Shown: positions 22,952 to 64,000 of the stretch, piece by piece | How the letters are laid out: the number at the start of each line of letters is the position of its first letter | Numbering within the stretch: the stretch's first letter is position 1 | Made by a program: the position numbers and the translations under genes | Assembly: GCA_017625395.1 (NCBI GenBank) | Contig: JAGALD010000065.1 | Coordinates: forward strand, 6,356 to 70,355 | Length of the DNA stretch: 64,000 bases | Reading direction: 5' to 3' | Source: Bacilli bacterium | Lineage (GTDB): Bacteria > Bacillota_I > Bacilli_A > RF39 > UBA660 | Notes under the pieces: model-generated | The model's database searches: none | Told to the model about the DNA's origin: nothing | Seen by the model: only the letters and a program-made list of their open reading frames with translations

Positions 22952-23173
22952 TTATTCAATAATAAGCTCTAAAATTTCAGTTAAAACATCACTATAAGTA
23001 AATGATTTTATCTTATTATTATCCTCATTTAATCTTATAGTAAAAATTGCATTATATGTATTTTCAATAGTGCCATTAAACTCTTCTATTTGATTTCTTG
23101 CTCCATTATATTTAAAATGAATTACTTTTCCTTTTTCATTTTCTAATTTTTCTCTTATTTTAGATATATTCAT
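22952..23173 (-). CDS. veg: Veg family biofilm/sporulation-associated protein
   Basis: 73 aa. IREKLENEKGKVIHFKYNGARNQIEEFNGTIENTYNAIFTIRL...YSDVLTEILE parallels B. subtilis Veg (SDIK..L...LGKRLTLKANGGRRKT...). Confidence 0.8.
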   Translation of the reverse strand: MNISKIREKLENEKGKVIHFKYNGARNQIEEFNGTIENTYNAIFTIRLNEDNNKIKSFTYSDVLTEILELIIE

Positions 23174-23700
23174 CTTGGATACCCCACATACATAGTTCCA
23201 TTTGTTATAATTCCTCCTATGCCTTCTTCTTTGTATTTTGTACTGTTTATTATTTTCATTAAATCGATTGATTCATTTTTATTAGATAATGCTATTAAAG
23301 AAGCAACAATAGCTGGATCTAGTGCATGAATATTTATTCTTTTAGGACTACTTGCAAAATTTGCACCTGCTTTAATTAGTTCCTCATAGTTGGATTGACA
23401 TGCTCCTGCTATTATAATCAACTTTTCCTGACTTTTTTCATATTTTCTTGCTTCAATAATAGCTTGCTTAAAATTTTCACTATTTTTATATTGGTTTGTT
23501 TTTGATTTATTATTTTTTTTGTTGTAATAGGCATCGTGCCCTGTAATAACTACTATATCTGGATTAATATCTTCTAAATAACTATAAATATTATTTACAA
23601 TTTCACTTTCTTTTAAAGAAACTCCATATGCCATTATTTTTAGTTTTTTATATAATTTCAAACATCTTTTTAAATAACTACTATCTCCATCTGCTGACCT
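23170..23700 (-). pseudogene. yabG: Sporulation-specific protease YabG (peptidase U57), 3' portion only; 5' part split off by the inserted element
   Basis: Translation carries the YabG core blocks PDIVVITGHDAY, IIAGACQSNYEELIKAGANFASSP and INIHALDP. The annotated ORF starts at a TTG (23661). The same frame stays open and YabG-like (RSADGDSSYLKRC) for 13 further codons up to about 23700, then hits TAA. About 100 N-terminal residues expected for YabG are absent. Confidence 0.7.
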
Positions 23701-23743
23701 CTGTTAAGTAACTAATTTAGTATTAATTAAAGGTAACATTAAT

Positions 23744-23929
23744 TTACCCTAGTTTTTTATATAAATTATTCAAATATTCTTGTCTATATCTTTCTATTAA
23801 TCGCTCATTTAATATTTTAGAAATCTTCTTTAATTTTTTTTCTTCCTCTGTTTCCTCAACTTCTGGTTCTTTCGATAATCTACAATACATAAATGCTTTA
23901 ATTTTTCCAATATTTATTTTACTATTCAT
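23744..23929 (-). CDS. Hypothetical small protein at the element end
   Basis: 61-aa Lys/Glu-rich ORF between the junction and the recombinase genes. No recognisable motif. A recombination directionality factor role is possible. Confidence 0.3.
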   Translation of the reverse strand: MNSKINIGKIKAFMYCRLSKEPEVEETEEEKKLKKISKILNERLIERYRQEYLNNLYKKLG

Positions 23930-23945
23930 TACTTTACCTCTCTAT

Positions 23946-25505
23946 TTAAAATATCCTAACTTTCTTTGGTTCTCCTAAACCAAACTTAAATGCTATCTTA
24001 ATTGTGCTATCTTTATACACAACAATTTTATCAACTAAATCTCGCAAAGCTATATTCATAAGCTCATCACCATTTATAAAATGTTTATATTGTTCTAATA
24101 TTTGTTCTTTCCTTATATTTTCATTTTTTGATTCTAATATCTCTTTTAATAATTTTTCTGATTCTTCTTTTAAAAGTGTTTCATTTTTTTTCGTTTCTAA
24201 AAATTGTTCTAAAGTTATTTCTCCTTTTGTTTTTTGCAAATATAAATTTCTTATATTCTTATTGTGCAATTCAATATCCTCTTTTAAATAACCTATCTTT
24301 AGATTAGGTCGTTCAGATTTAATTAAGTTTTTAGTTGTTTTATCTATTATTTCATCTTCACTAACATAGTCGTCTATAATATCTTGCAAAGTAGTTTTAA
24401 TAATAGTTCGTAGTTTTGAATCTGCTATTGTTCTATTTGAACAAGGTTTTCTATCAATAACTTTAGTGCAGTCAAAGAAATACTTCACATTTGCTCGATC
24501 ACTTCTTTTACAAGCTGTCATAACTCTACCACATTCTCCACATATTACTAAACCACTAAACAAGCCACAATAATCGTTTTTTTCTTTTCTTTTCATCGTA
24601 TTTAATCTTCCATTAGCCTCATTAAATAACTGTTCAGTAATTATTGCTTGATGACAATTATCTATTGTTTCTCTATCTCTTATTGGTATAACTTCTCTTT
24701 TCTTTTGAAGATGACTTCTCTTAGTTGATTTTCTTTTAACTATTTTTCCTGTATATGTTTTATTTTTTAATATCCTATAAACAACCTTATCAGACCAATC
24801 ATAATAATATTTTTTATCCCTACTGGGTGTCATATTCATATATAACACAGGAGGAATAATCTTATCATTATTTAATCCATCTGCAACCTCTTGTCTAGTT
24901 TTTCCACTTGCAACTTCTGTAAATATTCTCTTAACAATGTTGGCAGCATATTCATCAACTTCTAATGTCCTTTTACCATCTTGTTTTTTTATCTTATAAC
25001 CATAAGGAGCAATAAAGCCAATAAATTGTCCATCATTAGTTTTAGATTCAGCAATTTGTTTTCTCTTTATAGATGCATCCTTAACATATCTATCATTAAT
25101 TAAGGATTTAAACCCTAACATAATATCTTGTTCACTATTATTAGGGTTTTCACTATCAAACTGATCATTTATAGCAATATATCTCACATTATGTTTAGGA
25201 AAATACTCACTAATATAATAAGCAGTTTCTATAAAATTTCTACCTAATCTAGACATATCTTTTGTTATAACACAATCAATAATGCCACTTTCAATATCAT
25301 TAATTAATTCTTCAAATCCCGGTCTATCAAAATTAGTACCAGAATATCCATCATCAATATATTCCTTATCAACTTCTAAACTCATACTTTTAGCATAAGA
25401 CTTTATTAAACCTAATTGATTGTATATACTAGTTGAAAAACCACTTAATTTATTCAAATCTTCTTGAGATAATCTTACATAAGCCACTGTTAATCTATTA
25501 TCCAT
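23946..25505 (-). CDS. Large serine recombinase (resolvase domain + recombinase domain + zinc ribbon)
   Basis: 519 aa. Catalytic AYVRLSQED with IIDCVITKDMSRLGRN resolvase motifs. C-terminal Cys4 ribbon CGECGRVMTAC...FFDC and a coiled-coil tail. Confidence 0.9.
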   Translation of the reverse strand: MDNRLTVAYVRLSQEDLNKLSGFSTSIYNQLGLIKSYAKSMSLEVDKEYIDDGYSGTNFDRPGFEELINDIESGIIDCVITKDMSRLGRNFIETAYYISEYFPKHNVRYIAINDQFDSENPNNSEQDIMLGFKSLINDRYVKDASIKRKQIAESKTNDGQFIGFIAPYGYKIKKQDGKRTLEVDEYAANIVKRIFTEVASGKTRQEVADGLNNDKIIPPVLYMNMTPSRDKKYYYDWSDKVVYRILKNKTYTGKIVKRKSTKRSHLQKKREVIPIRDRETIDNCHQAIITEQLFNEANGRLNTMKRKEKNDYCGLFSGLVICGECGRVMTACKRSDRANVKYFFDCTKVIDRKPCSNRTIADSKLRTIIKTTLQDIIDDYVSEDEIIDKTTKNLIKSERPNLKIGYLKEDIELHNKNIRNLYLQKTKGEITLEQFLETKKNETLLKEESEKLLKEILESKNENIRKEQILEQYKHFINGDELMNIALRDLVDKIVVYKDSTIKIAFKFGLGEPKKVRIF

Positions 25506-27087
25506 TTTCTACCTCATTAAGATTAAAGTTAAGGAATATTTTTATAGACTTATCTTCATATACTTCAATTCTATTTACTAATATTTTAAGAACTTCCTTT
25601 TCTGGTGTTTTTGATTTTAAGAATTCATTAATCCATTTCATTTTGGTCTTTTCATCAGTCAAAACATTTTTTGATTCTCCAAGTAATATTTCTAAATCTG
25701 TAACCTTTGCTACACATTCTTTTCTATCTTTCTCTAATTCTTTTTTGATTCCACTAAATTCATCAGAACTAATAATACCTGTAGCTCTATCTTTATAAAG
25801 TTCACTAATTGCTTTATCAATAGTAACAATTTTGCTTTTTACAATTGATAAATCTTTTTCATAATTTTCTAATAAATTCAAATTACAAATTGAAGATTTG
25901 TATGTGTTATCTAATTTTTCATTTTGAGAATACTTAACTAAAACTTCTCTTATTTTTTTTATTACAAGTTCATTTAAAGCATCTTCTCTATAATAATGCA
26001 TACTGCATACATTATTCCTATAAGTAGCATAAGTCCTACAAACATATATTGCATGAACTTTGCTAGAATCAGTTCCATTTTTTACTCGTCTAACTAACAT
26101 AGTCTTACCACAATCTCCACATACTACTAATCCTTTAAGTAAATAATCGTATTGTCTAAATCTAGTATCTGTTTTTCTTTTTGGTGCATTTACTTTTTCA
26201 AATAATTCCTTTGAAATAATTTTAGGTATAGCTCCTTTTTTTATTATCCACTTACTTCGTGGTAACAATCGCTTCTTTTTTGATTTTAGACTTACTCTTT
26301 CATATTTACCTTGAATTAAATTACCTATATATGCTTCATTTGTTAATATTGTTTTGACAGAACTTGGTTTCCACAAATTTGTTGTAACTGTAATTTTATT
26401 TAACTTTTTACCTCTATAAACATCTGGAGGAAGTATTCCCTCATTTGTTAAAGTTCTAGCTATCATACCATCAGTCATACCATCATTTTTCATATCAAAT
26501 ATTCTTTTAACAACATTAGCAGCATAATCATCAATAACAAATTTTCTACTATCTTCCTCTGATCTTTTATAACCATAAGTTACTGAACTACCTACAAACA
26601 ATCCTTCTTTCATCTTGTCATGTCTAACACTTTTTATTTTTCTTGATATATCTTTTATATACATATCATTGATAACTGCTTTAAATGGTAATATGTCCTC
26701 CATCCCATTTGGATTTAAAGTATCATAATTTTCCAATATAGCAATATATCTAACATTATGTTCTGGAAAATATTTAAACACATAATTACCAGTTTCAATA
26801 AACTCTCTCCCTAATCTAGACATATCCTTTGTAATAACACAATCAATAATGCCATTTTCAATATCATTTATTAATCTTTTAAAACCAGGTCTATCAAAAT
26901 TACCACCAGAGTATCCATCATCAACATAGTAATCATATATTTCAATATTATTCTTAATAGCATAGTCCTTAATAAATGCTCTTTGATTAGTAATACTAAC
27001 ACTCTCAATATCTTTATTATCATCTTCGATTGAAAGTCGCACATAAGCACCTGCTCTATATGTTTTATTAGTTAAGCAATCTATCAT
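25498..27087 (-). CDS. Large serine recombinase, paralog of the adjacent one
   Basis: 529 aa. AYVRLSIEDD; an IIDCVITKDMSRLGRE block identical to the neighbour's; CGDCGKTMLV...IYVC zinc ribbon. Overlaps the downstream recombinase gene by 8 nt (operon). Confidence 0.9.
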   Translation of the reverse strand: MIDCLTNKTYRAGAYVRLSIEDDNKDIESVSITNQRAFIKDYAIKNNIEIYDYYVDDGYSGGNFDRPGFKRLINDIENGIIDCVITKDMSRLGREFIETGNYVFKYFPEHNVRYIAILENYDTLNPNGMEDILPFKAVINDMYIKDISRKIKSVRHDKMKEGLFVGSSVTYGYKRSEEDSRKFVIDDYAANVVKRIFDMKNDGMTDGMIARTLTNEGILPPDVYRGKKLNKITVTTNLWKPSSVKTILTNEAYIGNLIQGKYERVSLKSKKKRLLPRSKWIIKKGAIPKIISKELFEKVNAPKRKTDTRFRQYDYLLKGLVVCGDCGKTMLVRRVKNGTDSSKVHAIYVCRTYATYRNNVCSMHYYREDALNELVIKKIREVLVKYSQNEKLDNTYKSSICNLNLLENYEKDLSIVKSKIVTIDKAISELYKDRATGIISSDEFSGIKKELEKDRKECVAKVTDLEILLGESKNVLTDEKTKMKWINEFLKSKTPEKEVLKILVNRIEVYEDKSIKIFLNFNLNEVENG

Positions 27088-27175
27088 TTTTAACCTCTCT
27101 TTCTTTTTTTCTTAACCAACTCCACATAACACATTCATTATATATTTAATTATTAAATATTACGAATGTACAAAT

Positions 27176-27304
27176 TTATATATTTTTAGCATTTTGTAGT
27201 TTTAATTTTAAAAACTTTTCAAATGCCTCTAATATTACATCTTGAACATTTTTACCATTCTCATCATAGACAAGAATCACTAAATCTTCTTTCTTCGTTT
27301 CCAT
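27176..27304 (-). CDS. Small ORF (42 aa) upstream of the recombinase pair
   Basis: Not in the ORF track (below 60 aa). ATG at 27304 is preceded by a strong AAGAAGGAGG RBS (revcomp of 27307-27318). Product: METKKEDLVILVYDENGKNVQDVILEAFEKFLKLKLQNAKNI. Confidence 0.3.
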   Translation of the reverse strand: METKKEDLVILVYDENGKNVQDVILEAFEKFLKLKLQNAKNI

Positions 27305-27373
27305 ATATCTTGCCTCCTTCTTAACCTTATGAACATCTCTTTTATTTAATACATTAAAAAAAAGTAGAAATTT

Positions 27374-27718
27374 CTACTTTAATTCAAATGATATTTTTAT
27401 AGCTTCATTTACTTTTTCTAAAGTATCGCTTTCTAACATACCCATATAACCTTTTAATCTACTTTTATCTAAAACTCTAACTTGCTCTAACATAACAATT
27501 GAATCGTGTCTTAATTTATCAAATTGTTTAATTAAAATATGTGTAGGTAATAATTTATCTTTCTTTGTTGATATTGGAGCTACCAATACAGTTGGACTAT
27601 GTTTATTTCCTAAATCATTTTGAATTATTAAAACTGGTCTAATTCCTTTTTGTTCACTTCCTACTATTGGATCTAAATCTGCATAAAACATTGCACCCCT
27701 AATTATTTTTTTCATCAT
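27374..27718 (-). CDS. MazF/PemK-family type II toxin endoribonuclease
   Basis: 114 aa. IRGAMFYADLDPIVGSEQKGIRPVLIIQNDLGNKHSPTVLVAPIS fits the PemK/MazF fold signature (G.i..vdf.p..GsEq.g.RPalVv). Confidence 0.85.
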   Translation of the reverse strand: MMKKIIRGAMFYADLDPIVGSEQKGIRPVLIIQNDLGNKHSPTVLVAPISTKKDKLLPTHILIKQFDKLRHDSIVMLEQVRVLDKSRLKGYMGMLESDTLEKVNEAIKISFELK

Positions 27719-27893
27719 TATTCCCCTTTCTAATCTCTCTAATTTTTACTCGTACATTTTTCTTAACATAAGGTAAGTCCAATATATGACTTTCATTCAT
27801 AACTGTATTTACTTGACTATTAACATCTTCTTTGTTTTCCCCACTTAAATCAAAAGTATATTTTTTAATAATCTTTATTCTATATCTTTTCAT
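27699..27893 (-). CDS. Putative antitoxin partner of MazF (non-canonical)
   Basis: 64-aa ORF from ATG 27893, overlapping the toxin start by 20 nt (typical TA coupling). Its sequence is not recognisably MazE or PemI. Confidence 0.35.
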   Translation of the reverse strand: MKRYRIKIIKKYTFDLSGENKEDVNSQVNTVMNESHILDLPYVKKNVRVKIREIRKGNNDEKNN

Positions 27894-28395
27894 AATTCTT
27901 TCCTTTCTACTTTTATGTAAAAATATCAACTGTTTAATAAAGTTCGCTAAAATATAAATAATTTATTATTTCACTAACTCCAGTTGATATTAATTTCAAA
28001 ATTATTTTTATTTAAGTGTTAATATTATTCCTATCCCCTTAACACAGGGAATCATTAAATGGTTGATTGCTAATCAACTCCATAGGAATTGCACCTCCTC
28101 ATGGTTCTCACGAAGTCGCACCCATTGCTTTAGTCTGTGGCTATGCGAAAGTATCATTATGCCTATTATTTGTTATCGCATTATTAGGAGCAACCTAATA
28201 TTTATGGTCAAGCTTTTATCGTCAAGCGAACTTACCAATGTGCTGTCAGTTTCCCAACATAATAGGAATGTATTTAATGACTGATTATAAATTTTCAAAG
28301 AACTCTGTTTCAAAAAAAGAAACAGTTGCGAAAGAGAATTATTATCCCCTCTCAACTGTTTCCCCACTTAAAAGCTAAAAGTTAACCCTAAAATG

Positions 28396-28887
28396 TTAAT
28401 TTTTTAAATTTTTTTTCAAATTTTCTAAACCATCATCAATACTATGTTTAACTGCAACTTTACTACATCCCTCTTGTTTAGCAATTTCTACCATAGTCAT
28501 ATTCTCAAAAAAGTATTTCTTTAATCTTCTTTTTTGTACTTCTGGTAATTTATTAATTGCTAATCGCAGTTCTTCTGCAATTAATTTATTTTCAACCTGT
28601 TCTTCAATACCTACTGGCTTGTCCACTGCTCTATTATTTAATGTATATTCAAATACTTCATTATGTTCTATATGTCTTTCATATTCGTGCATTTGTGATA
28701 TATCTTCTAACTCAAACTTATCAAATGCTCCAAATACTTTTTCTGATACTTCAACTTTATGAATATTATTTTTATTATCTTTAAAAGAAACAATATAACT
28801 ATGTTCCTTTTCGTTATAATTTAATATATAAGGATTATCCTTACTTTTTCTTCTTTTAGGCATTGTAGCCATAATATGTTCCTCCAA
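28396..28887 (-). CDS. Sigma-70 region-4-type HTH protein (ICE/phage late-regulator-like)
   Basis: 163 aa. C-terminal ENMTMVEIAKQEGCSKVAVKHSIDDGLENLK is a sigma-70 region-4 / ECF-like HTH. N-terminus has no region 2. Confidence 0.5.
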   Translation of the reverse strand: MEEHIMATMPKRRKSKDNPYILNYNEKEHSYIVSFKDNKNNIHKVEVSEKVFGAFDKFELEDISQMHEYERHIEHNEVFEYTLNNRAVDKPVGIEEQVENKLIAEELRLAINKLPEVQKRRLKKYFFENMTMVEIAKQEGCSKVAVKHSIDDGLENLKKNLKN

Positions 28888-29321
28888 TCAATTCAAATTT
28901 TTTTAAAATCTAAATTGACTAGAGGTGGACTTCTACATCTTAAAAATATAGAAAACAAAAAAAGGCCATATTTCACTCCCTTGCATAGAGAGCAAAATAC
29001 AGCCTTGGCATTTGCTATAAATTTTATTATTTCATATTCAATAATGCAGTATTTTGTCATCATAGGCAATCGCTCCCATAATGCAATTGCCATTTTGCTT
29101 AGGGCAAAGACAAATACTGCTCAAAATCCTAGCCGATTAACAATAACCTGTAATATATAATAAGAGAAAAAAAGATACTTCTTACTACTTCTACTTCCTT
29201 ACTGCTAACAACTTTTTTCATTAAAAGCTAAATATAATCATCTCATTTCTTATATAAAACATAGCGTTGGCATTTGCTATTATCTACATTATACGACATT
29301 TTTTTGTTTTTTCATATGCCA

Positions 29322-29358
29322 CAAAAAAAGCACCTTATCAAAATAAGTGTGCTTTTTG
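29322..29358. terminator. Bidirectional rho-independent terminator
   Basis: Stem AAAGCACCTTAT / ATAAG-TG-TGCTTT with an A-run upstream and a T-run downstream. Lies 3' of the minus-strand gene ending at 29364. Confidence 0.55.
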
Positions 29359-29363
29359 TAAGT

Positions 29364-30143
29364 TTATTTTGTTTCTCCCATATTTACAACATCAGAAAGA
29401 TTTACCCAATTTCCAGTAACATTATCTTTAACTTTTAGACTACCAATATTTTGAGTAGATAACACAGAATTTTCTGTTTGTTGTTGCAACTCACGTGTAC
29501 CATGTTCAAAAGCAATAATTGTGTATTCATTATCAATATTACAACAAGAATACTGTTTCATAAATACAAGATATGTCTTTCCAACTTCTAAATGTATATC
29601 GTGTGACATTCTAGAATCTACTACAACGTTTTTCTTATTTTCTTGTATAGTTGTAACTTTTTCTAACTTTTTAGGATCAACATCACCTTTAATCCATTCG
29701 TTGTAACTAATTTCTGCTCCTAATCTTCTATAATTTATAGTTGTAGGAAGTTCTCCTTTTAATGTTTTAACCACTTTTGCAGTACCTTTAGTATATGGTG
29801 ATACATATTCTTTATTCAATGTATCCCAATTGCTAGCAGATAATGAATCTATAGTAACAATAGCTATGTAGTCTGCTTCATTATTGATTTCTTGTTTTTG
29901 GGAATAATCTTTCCCTAAATATAATTCATAATAAGCTTTATATATTGTTTTGTTATCATTGCTAGAGGAAGTGATTGGTGTGTCATCATCATTGCTTTTT
30001 GACGACAAATCCACATCTTTACTATTTATTCCAAAGACCACTAATAATGCTGCTAGTATAGTAAAGCAAATAGTTCCATATATGATTTTCTTTTTATTTT
30101 TTTCTAATTTCATAATATTCTCCTTTCTATCCATATAATGCAT
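29364..30143 (-). CDS. Membrane-anchored extracellular protein (hypothetical)
   Basis: 259 aa. Signal-anchor KKKIIYGTICFTILAALLVVFGI, then a Ser/Asp-rich linker and a globular domain. No motif recognised. Confidence 0.45.
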   Translation of the reverse strand: MHYMDRKENIMKLEKNKKKIIYGTICFTILAALLVVFGINSKDVDLSSKSNDDDTPITSSSNDNKTIYKAYYELYLGKDYSQKQEINNEADYIAIVTIDSLSASNWDTLNKEYVSPYTKGTAKVVKTLKGELPTTINYRRLGAEISYNEWIKGDVDPKKLEKVTTIQENKKNVVVDSRMSHDIHLEVGKTYLVFMKQYSCCNIDNEYTIIAFEHGTRELQQQTENSVLSTQNIGSLKVKDNVTGNWVNLSDVVNMGETK

Positions 30144-30747
30144 TTAAATCATTTACATCTACTTGTTGAACTGTATTAACCATATGCCCCTCATCATGAG
30201 GATACATTATACTATATGGATTAGAATTATGAGCTAATCCAAATGCATGACCCATTTCATGAATAATCATTCTTCTAATTTTAGTTGCAGATATGTTATG
30301 AACTGCACTATCATTTATATAAATACGTGTAAATATATAATCTACTGAAGGACTTTGTTGATTAGCAGACTGATCGTAAAATCTGGTTTCGCCCCAAACA
30401 CTGGTATCTCCACCCCAAAAATTACTATCCTCTGTATAAATATCTAACATTGTACCAGCATTTGAACTAGCAGCAACCATACCAACTGGACTAGTAAATC
30501 CTGGACTTTCCCAGTTATTCTCTGCATCAATTATTAAATATTCGTAATAACCTGTACCACTATCATAATCAATATAGTAAGAAACTCTTGATATTCCTCT
30601 AGTGTATTTTCCACCGAATACAGCAGCATCAGCTGTGAATGGCAAAATCATAAAAACTGATAAAATTCCAAAAAATATTGCAACAATTTTTTTATTTTTC
30701 ATATTTCCTCCTTTTATGCTACAAATATTATTATCACGTTTTGCCAA
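30127..30747 (-). CDS. Secreted zinc metalloprotease of the metzincin type
   Basis: 206 aa with signal peptide (IVAIFFGILSVFMILPFTADA). HEMGHAFGLAH is an exact HExxHxxGxxH. A SIMYP Met-turn lies downstream. Confidence 0.7.
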   Translation of the reverse strand: MAKRDNNICSIKGGNMKNKKIVAIFFGILSVFMILPFTADAAVFGGKYTRGISRVSYYIDYDSGTGYYEYLIIDAENNWESPGFTSPVGMVAASSNAGTMLDIYTEDSNFWGGDTSVWGETRFYDQSANQQSPSVDYIFTRIYINDSAVHNISATKIRRMIIHEMGHAFGLAHNSNPYSIMYPHDEGHMVNTVQQVDVNDLNALYG

Positions 30748-30818
30748 TTGCTAAGTTGTAACATTAAACAAAATTAACTATCTCACCTCCACTTTTCAAT
30801 TTTAAATATCAAAACAAT

Positions 30819-31508
30819 TTATTTCCGATATTTAATTATTTCTTTAACTAAATCAATATATATAGAACTATCTGTTATATTAGTCTGAATTACATATGTT
30901 TCATTATTTTTAACAAACTTTATGAAGATAATTCCCTCATTGTCTACAATGTAAACTTTTTTATTATCAATTAAAGAACTTTGAGTATTTTCAAAAATTG
31001 CCTCATGAATGAAGTTATTATTTTTCTTAGGTGTAATATATAGATATATGAACTTACTATTATCTTCTATAGATTTAAAACCTCCAAAATAAATCTTTTC
31101 TTTTTTCTCATTATATAGTATTTTTTGAATCACGACCTCAAGTGATTCTACTTCTTTTAAATGTTTATATATCATAATGTTATCAATCAAATTATAATCT
31201 TTAGATTCATAATGGTAATACATCGAATTATCACCAGTATTTTTCACTTCATTGATAATTATGCTATCCTTTGACAAATTATTATTACTTGGTTTTTCTT
31301 CTGATAAATTAAGCATTTTATTATTTTTAATAATAAGACTAACAGATATTAAAAGTATAATTACAGGTACGACTACAGATAGTTTCCTAATAAATTGTTT
31401 TTTATTCTGTTTTCTATAAATTTGATGCTTTATTTTTTTATAATTATTATCAATATCTATATAATCATCCAAAATCGATTTTATTTTCTCCTTGTTATTA
31501 AACATCAT
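30819..31508 (-). CDS. Anti-sigma-factor-like single-pass membrane protein (putative)
   Basis: 229 aa. Short cytoplasmic N-terminus, one TM (LSVVVPVIILLISVSLII), then an extracellular domain. Overlaps the upstream sigma gene by 11 nt. Confidence 0.45.
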   Translation of the reverse strand: MMFNNKEKIKSILDDYIDIDNNYKKIKHQIYRKQNKKQFIRKLSVVVPVIILLISVSLIIKNNKMLNLSEEKPSNNNLSKDSIIINEVKNTGDNSMYYHYESKDYNLIDNIMIYKHLKEVESLEVVIQKILYNEKKEKIYFGGFKSIEDNSKFIYLYITPKKNNNFIHEAIFENTQSSLIDNKKVYIVDNEGIIFIKFVKNNETYVIQTNITDSSIYIDLVKEIIKYRK

Positions 31509-32037
31509 GTTCTCCTTTCTGAATATCTCTATAACTATTCAAAGTTCGATATATATAGCTTTTTATGGTCGATTCATTGATATTAAGTTCTTTTGAAATT
31601 TCTTTCATTGTCATATCGAAATAAAAATAAAAATAAAATGTTTTTATAATTACTTGTTTTTGTTTTAAAAGAAATTCCATAAAATTATCAAGTTCCCACT
31701 TTTCAAGTAAACTTTTTTCTAAATTATAATCAGAGGGTATCAGATTTATCAATTCTTTTTCTTCTTCTTCATTATCTTTTATGATGGTAGAAAAAAATAA
31801 GAATCTTCTTTTATACCTCGCTCTATAATAATCTTTTATTTTCTTATCTGCAATGCCAATAAGGTATGAATAATAATTATTTATTTTTTTTCCTTTTTGA
31901 CAGGCAGTATAAAGTCCAACATATGTATCTTGTATAATATCATTAATATCTTGTACATTTGCACAATTACTAATGATGTATTTTAGTACATAATTGTAAG
32001 TATCTTTATATATTTGTTCAAATCTTTCATCAGTCAT
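31498..32037 (-). CDS. ECF-type RNA polymerase sigma factor
   Basis: 179 aa. Region-2-like IQDTYVGLY and a region-4 HTH (MTMKEISKELNINESTIKSYIYRTLNSYR). Confidence 0.7.
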   Translation of the reverse strand: MTDERFEQIYKDTYNYVLKYIISNCANVQDINDIIQDTYVGLYTACQKGKKINNYYSYLIGIADKKIKDYYRARYKRRFLFFSTIIKDNEEEEKELINLIPSDYNLEKSLLEKWELDNFMEFLLKQKQVIIKTFYFYFYFDMTMKEISKELNINESTIKSYIYRTLNSYRDIQKGEHDV

Positions 32038-32228: not shown

Positions 32229-32885
32229 TTAACTAATTCTATAATGTCCAACTATGTCATCATGATATTTTAAAATATCTTCTTCATAATACTTTTGATA
32301 TGGATTAGCATGATGAATTATAAAAGTAATACCTTTTTTATTTCTCTTATCTGATACTATACCAATGTGTTTTTCAAATACAACAATATCTCCACCTTGC
32401 CATTCTTCTATTTTATTAATATCAGTTGTTAAAGAAATGGCATTATTATCAAAATAAACTTTTAAATTTCGAACTCTTCTAAAATCTATATTCTTATCTA
32501 CAACATCTATATCGTACAAATCTCTATTTAATTTAATATGTTCATTAACTAATTCCATTAAATCATATCCAGCATCTTTTAAACCAAATGCTACAACATC
32601 AGTACAAACACCATATTCATCATCTGGATAGCCGGTTGCATAATACTTACTTTGATACCTTGGTTTTGTTTTAATATATTTTCTTGTATTATTTATAATA
32701 TCTGTTTGATCATCTATACCATCATTATCTTTATCCACTAAACTAATATATGTTTCTATACCAAAATCTTTATTTGTATATTTTCTATGAGGAATAATAT
32801 TTAGAGCATAAAGAAAGTAAATAATGAAAGAAATAAATAATATAAATATAACCGTCAAAATAATTATTAACTTTCTTTTTTGCAT
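32229..32885 (-). CDS. DUF1287-like protein with N-terminal membrane anchor
   Basis: 218 aa. TM (LIIILTVIFILFISFIIYFLY), then a domain with conserved Cys/His (YGVCTDVVAFGLKDAGYDL ... HIGIV...IIHHANPY), suggesting an NlpC/P60-like or DUF1287 fold. Confidence 0.5.
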   Translation of the reverse strand: MQKRKLIIILTVIFILFISFIIYFLYALNIIPHRKYTNKDFGIETYISLVDKDNDGIDDQTDIINNTRKYIKTKPRYQSKYYATGYPDDEYGVCTDVVAFGLKDAGYDLMELVNEHIKLNRDLYDIDVVDKNIDFRRVRNLKVYFDNNAISLTTDINKIEEWQGGDIVVFEKHIGIVSDKRNKKGITFIIHHANPYQKYYEEDILKYHDDIVGHYRIS

Positions 32886-32941
32886 ATAACCTCCAAAAGT
32901 AATCTTCTATTTATATTATACCATGAAAAAAGCAAATCTTA

Positions 32942-33760: not shown

Positions 33761-33855
33761 ACTACACCTACTACACTTTTTTTACTTAATTATATATTCT
33801 TATTTATATTAACTCTATCAATTTTAAGATGCACTTTGTAAAATTTTGGTTGCTA

Positions 33856-35746: not shown

Positions 35747-36389
35747 CTATCCTATACCCTATGCCTTTAACTGTTGTAATTATATCTGTTCCTAATTTTT
35801 CTCTTATTCTCCTTAAATAAACTGTTGCTGTATGATCATCAACATAATTACTTGTCCAATCATATATTTTATCTAAAATAGTTTCTCTACTTACCACTTT
35901 TCCAATATTTATAAACAATAAATTAAGTATTTTTAATTCTAAACTAGATAAATCTATAATCTCATTATTTCTACTAGCACACATTTTATCCAAATCAAAA
36001 CTTATATCTTTTACTTTAATTACTGACTTCTTTTCATTTCTTAAAATTACTTTATTAACTCTAACCAATAATTCCATAGTAGAAAATGGTTTCGTCATAT
36101 AATCCTCTGCCCCTAAGTTTAACCCTTTAACGACATCACTTTCTTCATCTCTTGCAGTTAAGAAAATTACAGGGATATTTTTTTTTTGAATAAAGTTTTC
36201 ATATAAATCAAAACCATCACCATCAGGAAGTGATACATCTAAGATAATTAAATCTGGATTATTATTATTTAAGTAATCTACTGATTCTTTAATTGTCGTT
36301 TTATAAACTAAATTATAATTATTCTTTTTAAATGCATATACTAAACCTTCAGCTATACTTTCATTATCTTCAATTAATAAAATGCTCAT
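35736..36389 (-). CDS. OmpR-family response regulator
   Basis: 217 aa. Receiver domain with phospho-acceptor Asp (LIILDVSLPDGDG) and a winged-helix C-terminus (GIGYRI). Confidence 0.85.
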   Translation of the reverse strand: MSILLIEDNESIAEGLVYAFKKNNYNLVYKTTIKESVDYLNNNNPDLIILDVSLPDGDGFDLYENFIQKKNIPVIFLTARDEESDVVKGLNLGAEDYMTKPFSTMELLVRVNKVILRNEKKSVIKVKDISFDLDKMCASRNNEIIDLSSLELKILNLLFINIGKVVSRETILDKIYDWTSNYVDDHTATVYLRRIREKLGTDIITTVKGIGYRIDEK

Positions 36390-59428: not shown

Positions 59429-59646
59429 TATCTTTCCACATTTTTTAATTTTTTAGTATCTTTTTTTGATACATTATTAAACCTTTTCTCATGATATTTC
59501 TTTAATTCTTGTGCTGTTTTAACAATACTTTCTATTATTCTATCTGTACTAGCACACTCATTAAAAAATTTAACATCTTCTAAATAGCATTCACTTTCAA
59601 AATTAATTTTTCTAATAAGTGTTTTTATTTTAGTATCATATTTCAT
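59428..59646 (-). CDS. Hypothetical small protein
   Basis: 72 aa, basic, coupled to its neighbours. Confidence 0.35.
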   Translation of the reverse strand: MKYDTKIKTLIRKINFESECYLEDVKFFNECASTDRIIESIVKTAQELKKYHEKRFNNVSKKDTKKLKNVER

Positions 59647-60326
59647 CGCTCATCCCTCTCTTTATCTTTATTGATATCACTTTTATTCTTTTCATTGTTC
59701 ATAATTTCTTTTAATTTTGGTAATATTTTTTCTTCTATATTTTTATAATTTTCTGAATTGATAACTGATATTTCATTTAGATATTGTAAATGGTTATCAT
59801 CTACTAATTGAGCAAAATAATGATATAAGTATTCTGCTCCACCTACTTTATTCATAATTTCATGAACATCAATTACTTCAAAATTATCAAGATTATATTT
59901 TTTCTTTATATAATCGCAAAAATTATAATTATTAAAATCTTTTAGAGCATCACTCATATCTTTTAATAATTCATAATTTGGATCACTTTTAGCTTGTTCA
60001 TTTAACTTTGAAACATATTTGTCTGCTAACTCTAGTAAACATTCATTCATATTATCTTCTATAACATTATGAATACCATTATCTGCATTTATCCAGTCAT
60101 CATATAAAAACTCTAATGAATTTTCCTTTTCTAATAAAGCAGTAAGTTCATATTTACTATAGTTTTCTGTTCCATAAAACATATCAACAAACTCTTGCAT
60201 TATTGCTATTTTATAGGCATTATCAACTATATTCTTTGGTTCAGTTTTTAAAATATTATCTATAAAGTCACCATATTCTTTGTCTAGTTTTTTATAAACT
60301 TGTGTTGTTAAATCTTGTATCATCAC
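59643..60326 (-). CDS. Hypothetical acidic protein
   Basis: 227 aa, Asp/Glu/Asn-rich, no motif. Confidence 0.4.
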   Translation of the reverse strand: MMIQDLTTQVYKKLDKEYGDFIDNILKTEPKNIVDNAYKIAIMQEFVDMFYGTENYSKYELTALLEKENSLEFLYDDWINADNGIHNVIEDNMNECLLELADKYVSKLNEQAKSDPNYELLKDMSDALKDFNNYNFCDYIKKKYNLDNFEVIDVHEIMNKVGGAEYLYHYFAQLVDDNHLQYLNEISVINSENYKNIEEKILPKLKEIMNNEKNKSDINKDKERDER

Positions 60327-60360
60327 ATTCTCCTTTCAATATTAAAAGACAATACTTTTA

Positions 60361-60714
60361 CTAGCATTGCCTTTTTTCATTTCTTTCTGTATTTAATAGT
60401 CCAATTCTATTAAAAAAATAATATGCTTCTTTATATCCTTTGAAAAACATTAATCTTTTTAACATACCATCTTGTTCAGTTCTATTATCTAATATTTCTA
60501 TTAATGCTTTTATTTCTTCCATAGACAACATACTTTCTTCACGATCATCTACAACTTTTCTTAAATTTGGATACTTATCTAATATTCGTTCTTCTTTATC
60601 ACTTAATTCTCCATACTCTGGTATTTTTTGGTCAAATTCAAAATCAACATGAGCTAAATATTCATAAAAGTGTCCATCATATTTATCATAAAAGCAAGTA
60701 TTGAGATAATTCAT
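60361..60714 (-). CDS. Hypothetical protein, tandem paralog A
   Basis: 117 aa. Shares LDKYPNLR, EEIKALIE and F.GY..AY..F blocks with the adjacent ORF. Confidence 0.4.
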   Translation of the reverse strand: MNYLNTCFYDKYDGHFYEYLAHVDFEFDQKIPEYGELSDKEERILDKYPNLRKVVDDREESMLSMEEIKALIEILDNRTEQDGMLKRLMFFKGYKEAYYFFNRIGLLNTERNEKRQC

Positions 60715-60818
60715 TTCCTATTCCCTCCTTTACGACAAACATTTTAAACTTTTTATAAATATAAAACAAATGTGCAAATATAATTATTTCTAACTATTTG
60801 CACACTTGTATCTGTGAA

Positions 60819-61166
60819 TTAATATTGTAAGATGTCATCAAGACTAATATCTTCTCTTAATAATTCTGCATTTTTAAACACCACATAAGCACATCTAAAC
60901 CCTGCATATATTAATTTTTTATCTTGCATTGTTTCTCTGTTTTCATAACATTGATGGTAATCTATTAATGCTTTTACTTCTTCAACATTTAATGCAACAG
61001 GCTTATTATCTTCACACACTAACCTTACATTCGGATACTTATCTACGATTTTTACACACTCATCTAAATTTCTCATATACTTACGATTATTTTTTTGTAA
61101 ATCATAAGTAATATTGTTTAGTATTGCACTAAATATTTCCCCATACTTTTCTTCTAATTCATCCAT
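60819..61166 (-). CDS. Hypothetical protein, tandem paralog B
   Basis: 115 aa. VDKYPNVR, EEVKALID and AGFRCAYVVF blocks parallel paralog A. Confidence 0.4.
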   Translation of the reverse strand: MDELEEKYGEIFSAILNNITYDLQKNNRKYMRNLDECVKIVDKYPNVRLVCEDNKPVALNVEEVKALIDYHQCYENRETMQDKKLIYAGFRCAYVVFKNAELLREDISLDDILQY

Positions 61167-61227
61167 ACTTTTAACTCCTTTCAGAGTTAAGTATAAGAAA
61201 TATTTTTATTATTTACCAATGTGTAAA

Positions 61228-64000
61228 TTATCTCTCGTAATCATTTTTACAAACTTGACGATCATTCTCTAATTCTTCATCTTCGTCCATTATCTCATAA
61301 GTTTTCTCATCTATTTTTAATAAAGAATTAACTTTATTTAATCTTTTTGTTTTTTCATTTAATTCTTCTTCATGAATAAATGGCTTACCAAACTCACTTT
61401 TAGCTTTCTCCAATTGTGTTTTATGACTTTCTAAAGTATATTCAGCAGAATCTAAATTTTCTTTTAATTCATTCATTGTATTTTCAATTCTAGTAATATT
61501 TCCTATATCACTTTCTCCAAGACTAGTATAATAAGTTCCATTATTTTTTAAATAAAGCATATATGATTTTGAAAGTGGTCTAAATTCAAGTTCCATTTTA
61601 AAACCTTTATATTCTCCAATTTCTACTATATTTTCATCAGTAACTTTTTTACATTCTTCTAATATTTTTTCTCCTGCTTGTTGTTTATCAAAATACTCAA
61701 TACCATTAATAGTCATTGAAGTAAACTTATCTTGACCTGAATCATTTTTTTCCATTAAAACTGCAATATCTTTCTTATAATTTTCTATATTTCTTTCACA
61801 ATTTCTTATTTCATTTGGATAATAATTTTTAATCTTATCTTCCAAATTATATTGTTCACTTAAATAGTTTTGTTTTAATAGTTTTAATTTTGATACATCT
61901 GTATCTAATTCAGTCTTTTCTATTATTAGTGGATTACCTGCAGCCAATGCTTTTATTTCTGCATAAGATAATGCCACTTCATCAATATCTTCCATTACTC
62001 TTACAGGAGTTTTAGATGTCATAACTTGAGAAATAAATCTTTGTTTTTGCTCCACTGTTTGATACAAATATGCATCAAAAGTCTTTTCAGTAACATATCT
62101 ATAAATATAAACATCACTATTTTGATTTCCTTGTCTTACAATTCTTCCACTTCTTTGTGTTAAGTCGCTTGGTCGCCAAGGACAGTCCAAGTCATGTAAT
62201 GCAATTAATTTATCTTGACAATTAGTTCCTGCACCCATTTTAGAAGTTGAACCCATTAATGTTCTTACTTGTCCTTTTCTGACTTTTGAAAATAATTCTT
62301 TTTTTCTTATTTCGGTATTGGCATTATGAATAAACTCTATATCTTCTTCTGGTATTCCTCTTTCAATTAATTTTTTTCTCATATCATCATAGACATTAAA
62401 CTTTCCATCGTTCTTTGGAGTAGATAAATCACAAAAGATTAATTGAGTTAATTTCTTATCTTTATTTTCTTCCCAAATTCTATAAATATTATCAGCACAT
62501 ATCTTAACTTTACTATTTTCATTATCTGGTAATAATTCATTAATTAATCTTTGGTCTAGCGATAACTTTCTTCCATCATTGGTAATTTTAAGCATATTAT
62601 CTTGGTCTGGTTTAACTTCTCTTTTCCTAATTTTTTCAGCTCGTTCTGCAAAAGACTTAACTAAATCTAATTGTATTTGACTTGGTTGAACTACTATATT
62701 TTCATAATGAGCATTAGGTACTGGTAACTTTAGTGTTTCAGATGTTTGAATATCTGCAACTTCTTTGAACATTGTCATCAGTTCTGGTAAATTATAGAAT
62801 CGTGCAAATCTAGTTTTAGAACGATAACCAGTTCCTTCTGGTGCTAGTTCCATTGCAGTAACTGTTTCCCCAAAAGTTGAAGCCCAAGCATCAAAATGTT
62901 GTAATTTTTGTTTTATTAACTCATCATATTGTAAATATCTTTGCATTGTATATAACTCTGCCATTGTATTACTAACAGGTGTTCCAGTCGCAAATATGAC
63001 ACCCTTATTTCCAGTTAATTCATCTAAATATCTACATTTCATATATAAATCAGAACTTTTTTGTGCCTCAGTTTGAGCAATACCACCTACATTTCGCATT
63101 TTGGTGTAAAGATACAAGTTCTTATAATAATGTGCTTCATCAACAAATAATCTATCTACACCTAATTCTTCAAAAGTAACAACATCATCTTTTTTATCTC
63201 TGTTATTTAACTTTTCTAATTTCTTTTCAATAGATTTTTGTGATTTTATAAGAGCTTTAATAGAAAATCTTTCGCCATTATGTTTTTTTAAATCTTCTAT
63301 TCCTCTAGTAATATCATTAAGTTGTTCTTTTAATATCTTTACTTGTCTATCATAAGACATTGGTATTTTTTCAAATTGTGAATGTCCTATAATAATTGCA
63401 TCATAATCTCCTGTAGCTATTTTAGAACAAAATTTCTTACGATTTGATGATTCAAAATCTTTCTTTGTAGATACAAGTATATTTGCACTAGGATATAATT
63501 GTAAGAACTCACTAGCAAATTGTTCTATTATATGGTTAGGTACTACAAATAAACTTTTATTACATAGCCCTAATCTTTTACTTTCCATTGCAGCTGCAAC
63601 CATTGTAAAAGTTTTACCTGCACCAACTTCATGTGCTAGTAAGGTGTTTCCACCATAAAGAATTCTTGCTACTGCATTTGCTTGATGTTCTCTTAATTTT
63701 ATTTCTGGATTAATTCCATCAAATGTAATATGTGATCCATCATATTGTCTAGTTCTAATCGCATTAAACTTATCATTATAAATTGTAGTTAAACGACTTC
63801 TTCTATCTATATCTTGCCATACCCAATTATTAAATGCATTCTTAATTGTATCTTGTTTAGCTTGAGCAATTGCTGTTTCTTGTCTATTTAATACTGCCTT
63901 TTTCTTACCCTCATCATCTATAACATAATCAAATATTTTTGTATCTCGTAAATTAAGTGCATCTTCCAATAAGCGATATGCATTTGCTCTTTTAGTACCA
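61228..64000 (-). CDS. SNF2-family helicase domain protein, probably the C-terminal part of a larger ICE methylase/helicase; N-terminus beyond the window
   Basis: DEAD-like motif I LLAHEVGAGKTFTMVAAAME, motif II RLFVDEAHYYKN, helicase-C motif VI LTQRSGRIVRQGN, and a long coiled-coil C-terminal tail. The open frame reaches the window end. Confidence 0.8.
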   Translation of the reverse strand, partial: GTKRANAYRLLEDALNLRDTKIFDYVIDDEGKKKAVLNRQETAIAQAKQDTIKNAFNNWVWQDIDRRSRLTTIYNDKFNAIRTRQYDGSHITFDGINPEIKLREHQANAVARILYGGNTLLAHEVGAGKTFTMVAAAMESKRLGLCNKSLFVVPNHIIEQFASEFLQLYPSANILVSTKKDFESSNRKKFCSKIATGDYDAIIIGHSQFEKIPMSYDRQVKILKEQLNDITRGIEDLKKHNGERFSIKALIKSQKSIEKKLEKLNNRDKKDDVVTFEELGVDRLFVDEAHYYKNLYLYTKMRNVGGIAQTEAQKSSDLYMKCRYLDELTGNKGVIFATGTPVSNTMAELYTMQRYLQYDELIKQKLQHFDAWASTFGETVTAMELAPEGTGYRSKTRFARFYNLPELMTMFKEVADIQTSETLKLPVPNAHYENIVVQPSQIQLDLVKSFAERAEKIRKREVKPDQDNMLKITNDGRKLSLDQRLINELLPDNENSKVKICADNIYRIWEENKDKKLTQLIFCDLSTPKNDGKFNVYDDMRKKLIERGIPEEDIEFIHNANTEIRKKELFSKVRKGQVRTLMGSTSKMGAGTNCQDKLIALHDLDCPWRPSDLTQRSGRIVRQGNQNSDVYIYRYVTEKTFDAYLYQTVEQKQRFISQVMTSKTPVRVMEDIDEVALSYAEIKALAAGNPLIIEKTELDTDVSKLKLLKQNYLSEQYNLEDKIKNYYPNEIRNCERNIENYKKDIAVLMEKNDSGQDKFTSMTINGIEYFDKQQAGEKILEECKKVTDENIVEIGEYKGFKMELEFRPLSKSYMLYLKNNGTYYTSLGESDIGNITRIENTMNELKENLDSAEYTLESHKTQLEKAKSEFGKPFIHEEELNEKTKRLNKVNSLLKIDEKTYEIMDEDEELENDRQVCKNDYER

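Follow-up and report, generated by a model that had tools for sequence, protein, structure and literature searches.

The split yabG gene

The window, by which we mean the whole 64,000-nucleotide stretch of DNA that was analysed and that comes from a gut bacterium not in culture, contains the host genes spoVG and veg and a YabG-homologous frame, all of which lie on the minus strand in its list of open reading frames (ORFs). The frame meets one end of a large element at the following features:

22594–22881, minus strand: host spoVG (ORF; Pfam SpoVG recorded on the identical gene in L002)
22952–23173, minus strand: host veg (ORF; Pfam VEG recorded on the identical gene in L002)
23170–23692, minus strand: 3′ part of yabG, residues 88–260 (PF05582 profile positions 109–280 of 280; 99.4% identical to residues 88–260 of the intact allele P0001)
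23689–23692, minus strand: AGAT, common core of the attachment site attR (from attB/attL/attR alignments)
23693–23715, minus strand: attR arm on the side of the element, TTAGTTACTTAACAGAGGTCAGC; it forms the left half of the dyad inferred for attP (kept in all recombinase relatives)
23689–64000, minus strand: part of the element within the window, 40.3 of ∼51.86 kb

The gene yabG encodes a mother-cell protease of spore coat and germination. It is controlled by sigma-K/sigma-E in C. difficile (PMC10681294; PMC3789822). All spore formers keep this gene, which counts as a signature of sporulation (PMC10747680). The intact host gene is preceded by a −10 box of the mother-cell type, CATATAAT (consensus from PMC3789822).

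The frame at 23170–23692 corresponds to the C-terminal 173 residues of YabG. The preliminary description had recognized the truncation but had put the loss at the first ∼100 residues, whereas 87 N-terminal residues are missing. Extended to the upstream in-frame stop, the frame is 177 amino acids long and matches PF05582 (Peptidase_U57, E = 1.1e-68) only at profile positions 109–280 of 280. Against TIGR02855 (spore_yabG), it covers positions 111–282 of 283 with 220 bits, below the full-length cut-off of 270 bits. Homology to intact YabG ends at 23692, and an in-frame TAA is found at 23706–23704. There is no second yabG segment in the window, and a complete YabG with both the SH3-like domain and the CheY-like domain that carries the His, Asp, and Cys residues (MEROPS U57/TIGR02855; domain scheme from PMC10681294) is recovered only after excision of the element in silico.

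The insertion cuts yabG between the codons for Ile87 and Asp88, at the end of strand β-1 of the catalytic CheY-like domain. Judged from an AF2 model, the 3′ part is devoid of the SH3-like domain, the linker, and strand β-1 (residues 84–88), while the catalytic residues His139, Asp140, and Cys185 are kept. Integration thus yields a 111-residue N-terminal stub at one end of the element and a start-less catalytic part of 173 residues at the other. An intact 260-residue YabG allele, P0001, is present in the same species and is 99% identical; YabG orthologues therefore do not begin naturally at the cut position, and the copy in the window is not a decayed duplicate, which disposes of two of the alternatives raised in the preliminary description.

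Gene content of the element

All the DNA to the right of 23692 belongs to the element. It encodes two large serine recombinases in tandem, together with transfer functions (type IV secretion system, coupling protein, and relaxase) and cargo, arranged as follows:

23744–23929, minus strand: 61-residue ORF between recombinase and attR (no Pfam or NCBIfam match)
23946–25505, minus strand: large serine recombinase B, 519 residues (PF00239, PF07508, PF13408)
25498–27087, minus strand: large serine recombinase A, 529 residues, a paralogue 38% identical to B (PF00239, PF07508, PF13408)
27176–27304, minus strand: 42-residue ORF just upstream of the recombinase pair, preceded by a ribosome-binding site of its own (no family match)
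27374–27929, minus strand: PemK/MazF toxin (27374–27718; PF02452, E = 2.3e-31) and an overlapping upstream small ORF, a putative antitoxin
28080–28160, minus strand: pemK RNA motif, Rfam RF02913 (58.1 bits vs a gathering score of 34.8)
28396–32037, minus strand: two sigma-70-like regulators (28396–28887 and 31498–32037) around an M10-like metalloprotease and unknown ORFs
32229–39650, minus strand: cargo (DUF1287, TMEM164-like, DUF218, histidine kinase and response regulator, FtsX permease and ABC ATPase)
40502–40957, plus strand: double-HTH (Cro/CI-type) regulator
40986–51900, minus strand: mating-pair and coupling block
42610–44925, minus strand: VirB4-like ATPase
44922–45284, minus strand: PrgI
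48063–49886, minus strand: VirD4-type coupling protein
51076–51900, minus strand: DUF3801
51890–53221, minus strand: MobA/VirD2-type relaxase
53331–53663, minus strand: NikA-like accessory protein
55691–57916, minus strand: surface module (Flg_new repeat protein, weak S26 signal-peptidase-like protein, M73 camelysin/TasA-like protein)
58010–64000, minus strand: HU-like protein, DUF3991/Toprim primase-like protein, two DUF6664 proteins, and part of an SNF2-type helicase

The double-HTH regulator is the sole element gene on the plus strand within the window, and the mating-pair and coupling block also contains pilin-like ORFs. The SNF2-type helicase (2377 residues) runs off the window, which holds at least its C-terminal 913 residues; beyond lie the remainder of the helicase, three small ORFs, a sortase, a 929-residue SpaA-type adhesin, a 228-residue ORF, ParB, and ParA. 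One contiguous element thus carries a relaxase (PF03432), NikA, a T4SS-DNA_transf protein (PF02534), a TraG P-loop/VirB4-like protein, and PrgI, with site-specific recombinases at its attR end, and each of its two defined ends borders on one half of an empty site, as befits an integrative conjugative element (ICE). Pfam scans of ∼45 ORFs returned no phage structural, terminase, or lysis genes, and a prophage-like content of the yin type (see below) was rejected, given conjugation genes in their place. The recombinases, secretion system, relaxase, and cargo listed in the preliminary description are all present.

In both recombinases, PF00239, PF07508, and PF13408 score above their cut-offs, and the translations show a YVRLS serine motif. 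For each of the two, CcrB ranks first among the NCBIfam families, but an assignment as CcrAB was rejected as the scores (85.7 and 123.5 bits) fall far under the 900-bit equivalog cut-off. The tandem pair is kept in six of seven relatives (L031–L036); L037 shows only a partial match resembling the 519-residue protein.

Family searches and conservation among the relatives yielded no proven directionality factor in the ICE. As a candidate accessory or directionality factor, the 42-residue ORF, present in the window and in L031–L036, ranks first. The 61-residue ORF always lies beside yabG in 10 contexts; it is a weak candidate because it is not conserved in relatives, being absent from L031 and L034–L036 judging by gap sizes. 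A scan of the region upstream of the recombinase operon gave no assignable sigma-E or sigma-K promoter; a conserved block there, ATTAAAT-N12/13-TTCATAAGGTTA, sits too near the ribosome-binding site for a confident promoter reading.

Ends of the element and excision in silico

The far end of the ICE was found on overlapping, 100%-identical metagenome contigs (the window vs L013 over 5744 bp; L013 vs L018 over 2386 bp), where ksgA and yabG codons 1–87 adjoin the ParA/ParB end of the element in frame. The proposal that an ICE of more than 40 kb splits yabG is thereby upheld, with an actual length of ∼51.86 kb, of which ∼11.5 kb extend past the window end; attL falls at the window-equivalent position ∼75,547.

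Alignment of attL (from L018), attR (from the window), and attB (from L017) delimits a 4-bp core, AGAT, that is common to these sites and the inferred attP and within which the crossover falls. The attL arm ACTGACATTTTATTAAGTAAC completes the dyad begun by the attR arm, so that the inferred attP reads GTTACTTAA-N5-GTCAG-CAGATA-CTGAC-N6-TTAAGTAAC. Short attachment sites, a 4-bp core, and a dyad-symmetric attP are the hallmarks of a serine integrase. One sequence collection was scanned for attP or a circular junction, and neither was found in it. Joining attL to attR in silico regenerates a 260-residue YabG that differs from P0001 only by R146K, and conservative attL × attR recombination would thus restore the intact protein. 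The element shares two defining features of intervening elements: it lies inside the coding sequence of a mother-cell sporulation gene, at codon 87/88, and its removal, carried out in silico, rebuilds an intact reading frame.

Relatives and horizontal spread

In three other hosts, ICE DNA that is 99.97–100% identical over 6 kb lies beside host DNA that is only 62–70% identical, at the same yabG position and with a yabG–element junction that is exact to the base. This contrast between element and flanks marks horizontal transfer, and the exact recombinase B protein adjoins split yabG in at least four host contexts. The same ICE has thus recently entered the same yabG site in several different species. 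The same host–ICE junctions were assembled independently in many samples by several assemblers.

More diverged recombinase relatives (58–83% identical) also abut yabG at residue 87/88, in seven of seven cases. All 11 distinct split C-terminal YabG parts run without interruption to the native stop and retain 59–63 of 63 invariant residues, and ∼45 distinct N-terminal stubs have element-derived tails. In L031, a mini-element of ∼5.4 kb with only an AAA ATPase, the 42-residue ORF, and both intact recombinases lies between intact yabG halves; such a remnant, bereft of transfer genes but with its recombinases kept, resembles domestication. A sister ICE with a near-identical backbone, a 98.6%-identical ParA, and another integration module splits uvrB. 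This ICE family therefore splits genes other than those of sporulation too, and gene splitting is a general habit of these ICEs.

Comparison with known elements

The closest precedent is yin of C. botulinum V73. This element lies in yabG, is prophage-like, and encodes a serine recombinase; its excision as a circle, which increases on sporulation, restores the gene (Douillard et al. 2023, PMC10747680). It shares with the present ICE the target (a likeness at the level of the gene) and a large serine recombinase of the PF00239/PF07508/PF13408 type. However, yin, which was reported to be unique to a single strain, is a Caudoviricetes-like prophage whose one recombinase lies beside the 5′ part of yabG and whose repeat is 14 bp long, whereas the present element is conjugative, has a tandem recombinase pair beside the 3′ part and a 4-bp core, and occurs in many uncultured Bacilli. 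The preliminary description had taken yabG for a new target gene, which yin contradicts; what is new is therefore the conjugative nature of the yabG-splitting element and how widespread such insertions are. Its further remark, that it would be unusual for such a gene to be interrupted by an ICE instead of a prophage, stands as far as our literature searches reach.

In SP-β (spsM), skin (sigK), vfbin, and gin of Bacillus and skinCd of C. difficile, a mother-cell gene is likewise split and is precisely rebuilt by a large serine recombinase, as it is here in silico (PMC6957869; PMC5595907; PMC5025042). SP-β remains fully active as a mobile element, as does the present ICE. None of the five is a natural ICE: skin, SP-β, vfbin, and skinCd are prophage-derived and gin is of unknown origin. 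For each, a directionality factor under the control of sporulation is known, where the present ICE has candidate ORFs only.

By their described features, the C. difficile elements CTn2, CTn5/Tn6103, CTn7, and Tn6105 (with two recombinases and a sigma factor) are Firmicute ICEs of similar build, with one or more large serine recombinases at one end (Brouwer et al. 2011, PMC3158075). In these elements, the ends bear repeats of 2–15 bp, excision regenerates the target, and ABC transporters, sigma factors, and two-component systems are carried as accessory genes (PMC3158075). None is reported inside a sporulation gene, and one CTn1-like element lies inside skinCd, although not as the gene-splitting unit. 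CcrA and CcrB of SCCmec are, like the present pair, two adjacent paralogous large serine recombinases that use one chromosomal site. SCCmec itself is not conjugative, and its insertion into the 3′ end of rlmH leaves that gene functional. TndX, TnpX, and CcrAB, serine recombinases of conjugative transposons and cassettes, excise without developmental control.

Possible excision during sporulation

We read the element as an active ICE whose tandem serine recombinases recognise one site inside yabG, and consider it plausible, with the case about evenly poised, that SP-β-type excision timed to sporulation rebuilds the gene. As long as the ICE is integrated, yabG would be off. The gene is required only at a late stage, in a mother cell undergoing terminal differentiation, and for this reason the ICE could act as an active intervening element of the SP-β type. 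The recombinase pair, probably aided by the conserved 42-residue ORF, would excise the ICE in the mother cell and so rebuild yabG for coat maturation, and the ICE would stay in the forespore chromosome; conjugative transfer in vegetative cells would use the same excision reaction. Counted in favour of timed excision are the open split yabG parts, which suggest maintained function, the mini-element L031, the CATATAAT box, and the yin precedent.

A wider version of this proposal, which we rate as unlikely, holds that a diversified ICE family of uncultured spore-forming gut Bacilli uses the yabG site as a developmental safe harbour, that mother-cell excision rebuilds yabG and may release a transfer-competent circle, and that L031-like remnants are ICE-derived counterparts of skin. 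If so, conjugation would be coupled to sporulation from a doomed cell, at no cost to the germ-line copy in the forespore.

The main competitor, a serious one that we nevertheless hold somewhat short of an even chance, is plain insertion. The conserved yabG would be a widely available landing site that costs nothing in growth, excision would be infrequent and ICE-controlled for conjugation, and most sporulating carriers would form spores that lack YabG and whose coat processing and germination are altered. The complete conjugation machinery and evidently recent interspecies transfer agree with this, and the recency of the exact-ICE insertions also weakens timed excision, in that intact yabG halves could reflect too little time for decay. 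The sister ICE in uvrB, which is not a sporulation gene, and the lack of an assignable sigma-E/K promoter and of a directionality factor point the same way; the absence of a circular junction from the scanned collection likewise counts against timed excision. The C. difficile serine-recombinase conjugative transposons CTn2/5/7 excise in ordinary cultures (PMC3158075), and yabG mutants in B. subtilis and C. difficile still form viable spores, with assembly and germination defects and no reported lethality (PMC10681294). Plain insertion accounts less readily for the yin precedent in the same gene and for ∼45 split alleles and 11 C-terminal parts without decay, though yabG is conserved in all spore formers (PMC10747680). 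L031, having lost all transfer genes with both recombinases intact, is hard to explain if excision serves transfer only.

It is very unlikely that the catalytic C-terminal fragment, with TTG 23661 or ATG 23634 as candidate starts, continues to be expressed from a promoter within the element, so that protease activity would be kept in part without excision. All three catalytic residues lie inside the fragment, the ICE genes are co-oriented with yabG so that read-through from the recombinase operon is possible, and a sigma-70-like match occurs at 23661–23633. Yet such promoter-like matches are fewer than in shuffled sequence (31 vs 45.5), no ribosome-binding site of note is present, and the fragment lacks strand β-1 and the SH3-like domain (AF2 model; scheme of PMC10681294), in which a point mutation of C. 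difficile YabG already impairs substrate processing (PMC10681294).

Least probable of all is a fixed, dead insertion that left yabG a pseudogene in the lineage, or a chimeric junction, as might be feared with metagenome assemblies throughout and a far end outside the window, since the junctions recur across samples and assemblers and are base-exact in diverged hosts, both yabG halves are intact, as are the recombinases, and the presence of nearly identical ICE copies in different species bespeaks current mobility.

An integrative conjugative element splits yabG

The genes near the yabG junction are all encoded on the minus strand:

22594-22881, minus strand: spoVG open reading frame
22952-23173, minus strand: veg open reading frame
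23170-23661, minus strand: open reading frame of the yabG fragment, upstream of veg; the frame is open as far as an in-frame TAA at 23706-23704

The 177-residue translation of the yabG frame matches Pfam Peptidase_U57 (E=1.1e-68) over profile positions 109-280 of 280 only, and TIGR02855 over positions 111-282 of 283, where its 220 bits stay below the full-length cut-off of 270. Together with the conjugative genes to the right, these partial matches bear out the preliminary description of yabG as truncated at its 5′ end and continuing into an integrative conjugative element (ICE). The YabG N-terminus is indeed absent, although the missing part measures 87 residues rather than the ∼100 first estimated. 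A natural start of YabG at this position is rejected by 32 full-length homologues and by an intact YabG from the same species (P0001). Within the window there is no YabG-like segment besides the fragment, which dismisses a second intact copy there; the objection that an intact yabG lies elsewhere is excluded for the window only.

P0001, recovered by a protein search with the fragment, is a 260-residue YabG that is 99% identical to the fragment and is encoded on a contig (L017) with the gene order ksgA-yabG-veg. A search with P0001 residues 1-90 yielded P0121, a protein of 111 residues listed by NCBI in a ‘Bacilli bacterium’ metagenome-assembled genome (MAG), in which YabG residues 1-87 are followed by an unrelated 24-residue tail. 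The contig of this far end (L018) carries, in order, metG, tatD, ksgA, the yabG 5′ part, ParA, ParB, a 228-residue ORF, a 929-residue SpaA-type adhesin, a sortase, three small ORFs, and the start of a helicase gene. L018 shares 2386 bp with a bridging contig (L013), which in turn shares 5744 bp with the right end of the window, both at 100% identity; the ICE is therefore bounded by the two yabG halves and spans ∼51,855 bp.

The sole sequence common to attB (CTCCATAT-AGAT-GGAGAT), attL (CTCCATAT-AGAT-ACTGACATTTTATTAAGTAAC), and attR (GTTACTTAACAGAGGTCAGC-AGAT-GGAGAT) is AGAT, at window positions 23692-23689. Longer junction stretches are CTCCATATAGATACTGACAT for attL, GGTCAGCAGATGGAGATAGT for attR, CTCCATATAGATGGAGATAGT for attB, and GGTCAGCAGATACTGACAT for the inferred attP. 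The latter is an imperfect palindrome, GTTACTTAA-N5-GTCAG-CAGATA-CTGAC-N6-TTAAGTAAC, and the AGAT core within a palindromic attP is the anatomy that would be expected of a serine-integrase site. When attL is joined to attR in silico, the result is a 783-bp ORF whose 260-residue product has one difference from P0001 (R146K); the far end thus adjoins in-frame yabG 5′ sequence, as had been predicted. An exact-pattern scan of the JGI metagenome collection for the inferred attP junction gave no matches, a result without weight since the known carriers come from ENA/Logan assemblies.

In one sample (ERZ16021082), contig NODE_882_length_51864 ends exactly where the AGAT core does (...GGTCAGCAGAT); its 51,864 bp are within 10 bp of the ICE size. 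This ending would fit branching of the assembly graph at both att cores, for example from integrated and circular forms or from several hosts per sample.

Position of the crossover in YabG

An AlphaFold2 model of P0001 (mean pLDDT 68; 83-84 around the site) contains an SH3-like β domain (residues 8-50), a disordered linker (54-80), and an α/β domain whose first strand comprises residues 84-88 (ILHID). These regions agree with the scheme for Clostridium difficile YabG, in which an SH3-like domain and a linker precede a CheY-like catalytic domain with Cys, His, and Asp (PMC10681294). The crossover coincides with the end of the first strand of the α/β domain. The fragment retains His139, Asp140, and Cys185, and an active stand-alone product is judged unlikely from the model because strand β1 and the SH3-like domain are missing.

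Recurrence of the insertion at one site

The exact 519-residue recombinase and the adjoining 61-residue ORF occur on dozens of metagenome contigs. Contigs that reach beyond the element end always run into a yabG 3′ part, in at least four chromosomal contexts. Across hosts, the junction-proximal 6 kb of the ICE is 99.97-100% identical, whereas the adjoining yabG-veg DNA is 62-70% identical; such near-identity beside diverged host DNA points to recent interspecies transfer into one site. The ICE is currently mobile, its insertion into yabG is site-specific through a serine-recombinase system with a 4-bp core, and the insertion is reversible in principle with exact reconstitution of yabG.

When species-representative genomes were scanned with the recombinase, seven relatives at 58-83% identity emerged, all from ‘uncultured Bacilli/Tenericutes’ MAGs. 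All seven adjoin a yabG 3′ part starting at residue 87/88 and carry the attR arm TTAGTTACTTAACAGAGGTCAGC or a variant of it. Six (L031-L036) have the full tandem recombinase pair, each with a conserved 42-residue ORF that has its own ribosome-binding site directly upstream of the pair; the seventh (L037) has only a partial match to the 519-residue recombinase.

One lineage has been reduced to a recombinase-only mini-element of ∼5.4 kb (L031:1965-8143) between intact yabG halves. It contains an AAA_14/DUF4143 ATPase gene, a toxin-gene remnant, the 42-residue ORF, and both full-length recombinases, without transfer genes. The record is labelled Muribaculaceae and is probably mis-binned, since the contig bears veg, spoVG, and yabG.

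Among 111 short N-terminal YabG clusters, ∼45 turn into non-YabG tails within a few residues past ...LPGKILHID and represent distinct split alleles from gut metagenomes. Many tails are translated attP-arm variants (D-x-x-L-S/N-N...); others read GD(E/K)VQEIKVA or (G/A)VCSLSKSKEK. Two tail types were looked up, and both led to ICEs of the same general build, with ParA/ParB or ParB alone, adhesin, sortase, and NikA; a relaxase and coupling protein are visible only at L040/L041, the L038/L039 locus ending shortly past NikA. None of the 11 distinct split 3′ parts is interrupted before the native stop, and each retains 59-63 of 63 residues found invariant across the 32 intact homologues. Codon 87/88 of yabG is a hotspot, used by several lineages of ICE among uncultured gut spore formers. 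The two looked-up lineages (L038/L039:10001-20306 and L040/L041:10001-20312) lie at, or a few bases from, the same yabG position in other hosts, with stub tails GDEVQEIKVA and GVCSLSKSKEKSH; one carries a β-lactamase/peptidase S11-like cargo gene (L038:19674-).

A sister ICE (L042-L051, e.g. L042:2204-2470 and 2470-3000), found through P0238, a protein nearly identical to the L018 ParA, encodes a ParA identical to that of L018 at 276 of 280 residues, and the downstream DNA is 92-93% identical. Its left end differs from L018 position 8954 outward, carries a 79-residue ORF, and adjoins an 88-residue UvrB N-terminal fragment ending ...NHVCYFVS, inside the conserved YFVSYYDYYQPEAY region. Since the same backbone has a different left end, in uvrB, integration modules have evidently been exchanged on it, and evidently these target conserved coding sequences generally, not sporulation genes alone.

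Gene content of the ICE

Pfam scans of ∼45 ORFs between 23.7 and 64 kb identify the element to the right of the yabG fragment as an ICE; no phage structural genes were found among these ORFs. The transfer genes encode a VirB4-like ATPase, PrgI, a VirD4-type coupling protein, DUF3801, a MobA/VirD2 relaxase, and NikA. Two overlapping genes encode large serine recombinases (519 and 529 residues), each with resolvase, recombinase, and zinc-ribbon domains. Other products include a Cro/CI-type regulator, two sigma-70-like proteins, HU, a DUF3991/Toprim primase-like protein, and, as cargo, an M10-like protease, DUF1287, DUF218, a histidine kinase with response regulator, and an FtsX/ABC transporter. 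A 2377-residue SNF2-type helicase leaves the window, where its C-terminal part forms a terminal ORF of 913 residues that found no match when looked up. The ICE also carries a PemK/MazF toxin gene preceded by an RNA motif:

28080-28160, minus strand: pemK RNA motif (Rfam, 58 bits; gathering score 34.8), located upstream of the genes for the antitoxin and the PemK toxin

Directly after the PemK stop codon (27340-27375, minus strand) lies an AT-rich hairpin, GTAGAAATTTCTAC, and then a T-run. It is likely a terminator between the toxin module and the operon of the 42-residue ORF (27176-27304, minus strand) and recombinases, which, being cut off from the toxin module, would then need its own promoter.

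A module at 55691-57916 (minus strand) resembles a SipW/TasA-type fibre operon, with a Flg_new repeat protein, a weak S26 signal-peptidase-like ORF, and a peptidase M73 (camelysin/TasA family). Outside the window the ICE also encodes the sortase and SpaA-type adhesin; adhesion or mating-aggregate functions are possible for all of these.

Comparison with known intervening elements

The preliminary description was right that an ICE splits yabG, but not that yabG is a new target gene: the yin element of C. botulinum V73 already occupies it (PMC10747680). yin, a Caudoviricetes-like prophage, encodes a single serine recombinase as well as a proposed directionality factor. It leaves the chromosome as a circle and restores yabG, increasingly as cultures enter sporulation; according to its authors, public databases contained no other yabG-disrupting element in November 2023 (PMC10747680). 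In contrast, the present element is fully equipped for conjugation and has tandem recombinases. Elements that split sporulation genes have been described as prophages or remnants of prophages: skin, SP-β, vfbin, and the kamA element are prophage-derived, gin is a small non-prophage element of unknown origin, and ICEs figure in the intervening-element literature only as engineered chimeras (PMC6957869, PMC5595907, PMC5025042). In C. difficile, conjugative transposons that use serine recombinases and regenerate their target on excision are well established (PMC3158075). We found no natural conjugative intervening element in the literature on yabG or intervening elements. What is new here is a conjugative, tandem-recombinase intervening element, and the presence of several related ICE lineages at one yabG site.

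Timing of excision

While the ICE is integrated, yabG is presumably inactive; the tandem recombinases may act together, with the 42-residue ORF as a putative accessory factor. We give an even chance to excision being developmental, timed to the mother cell. The precedent for excision in the same gene argues for such timing, as do a mini-element that retains nothing beyond the recombination unit, the many split alleles without decay, and the mother-cell-type box CATATAAT before host yabG (consensus from PMC3789822), a perfect −10 box ∼20 nt upstream of the ATG in the intact gene (L017:1815-1856). In the integrated state, this yabG promoter would read through the 111-residue stub towards the ParA/ParB end of the ICE.

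Plain ICE behaviour, yielding YabG-less spores, is a serious but somewhat less than even prospect. Against mother-cell timing stand the recency of the insertions, the sister element in uvrB, and the failure to assign a sporulation promoter to the recombinase operon from the conserved upstream block and promoter scans. The conserved block TTCATAAGGTTA could be read as a sigma-E/K −10 box, but transcription would then start inside the ribosome-binding site. A sigma-70 consensus scan of 23100-29500 was unusable, with fewer matches (31) than in shuffles (45.5).

Were mother-cell-timed excision to hold, ICEs would count among developmental switches alongside phages, and skin-like elements would not have to be of viral origin. 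If excision is instead not tied to sporulation, a common mobile element would silently alter how the spore coat matures and how spores germinate in many spore-forming gut bacteria, which matters for their transmission and for cultivation methods that select spores. In both cases the tandem recombinase pair and its defined 4-bp-core attB/attP provide a ready-made, testable site-specific integration system.

The 61-residue ORF between recombinase and attR (23744-23929, minus strand) was downgraded as a candidate directionality factor, there being relatives without room for it. The spacer between the 42-residue ORF and the first recombinase (27088-27175, minus strand) contains an imperfect palindrome, ACATTCGTAATAT-N-ATATAATGAATGT, around TTAATAATTAA; it is kept in L031-L035 and may serve as an operator or form an RNA hairpin.
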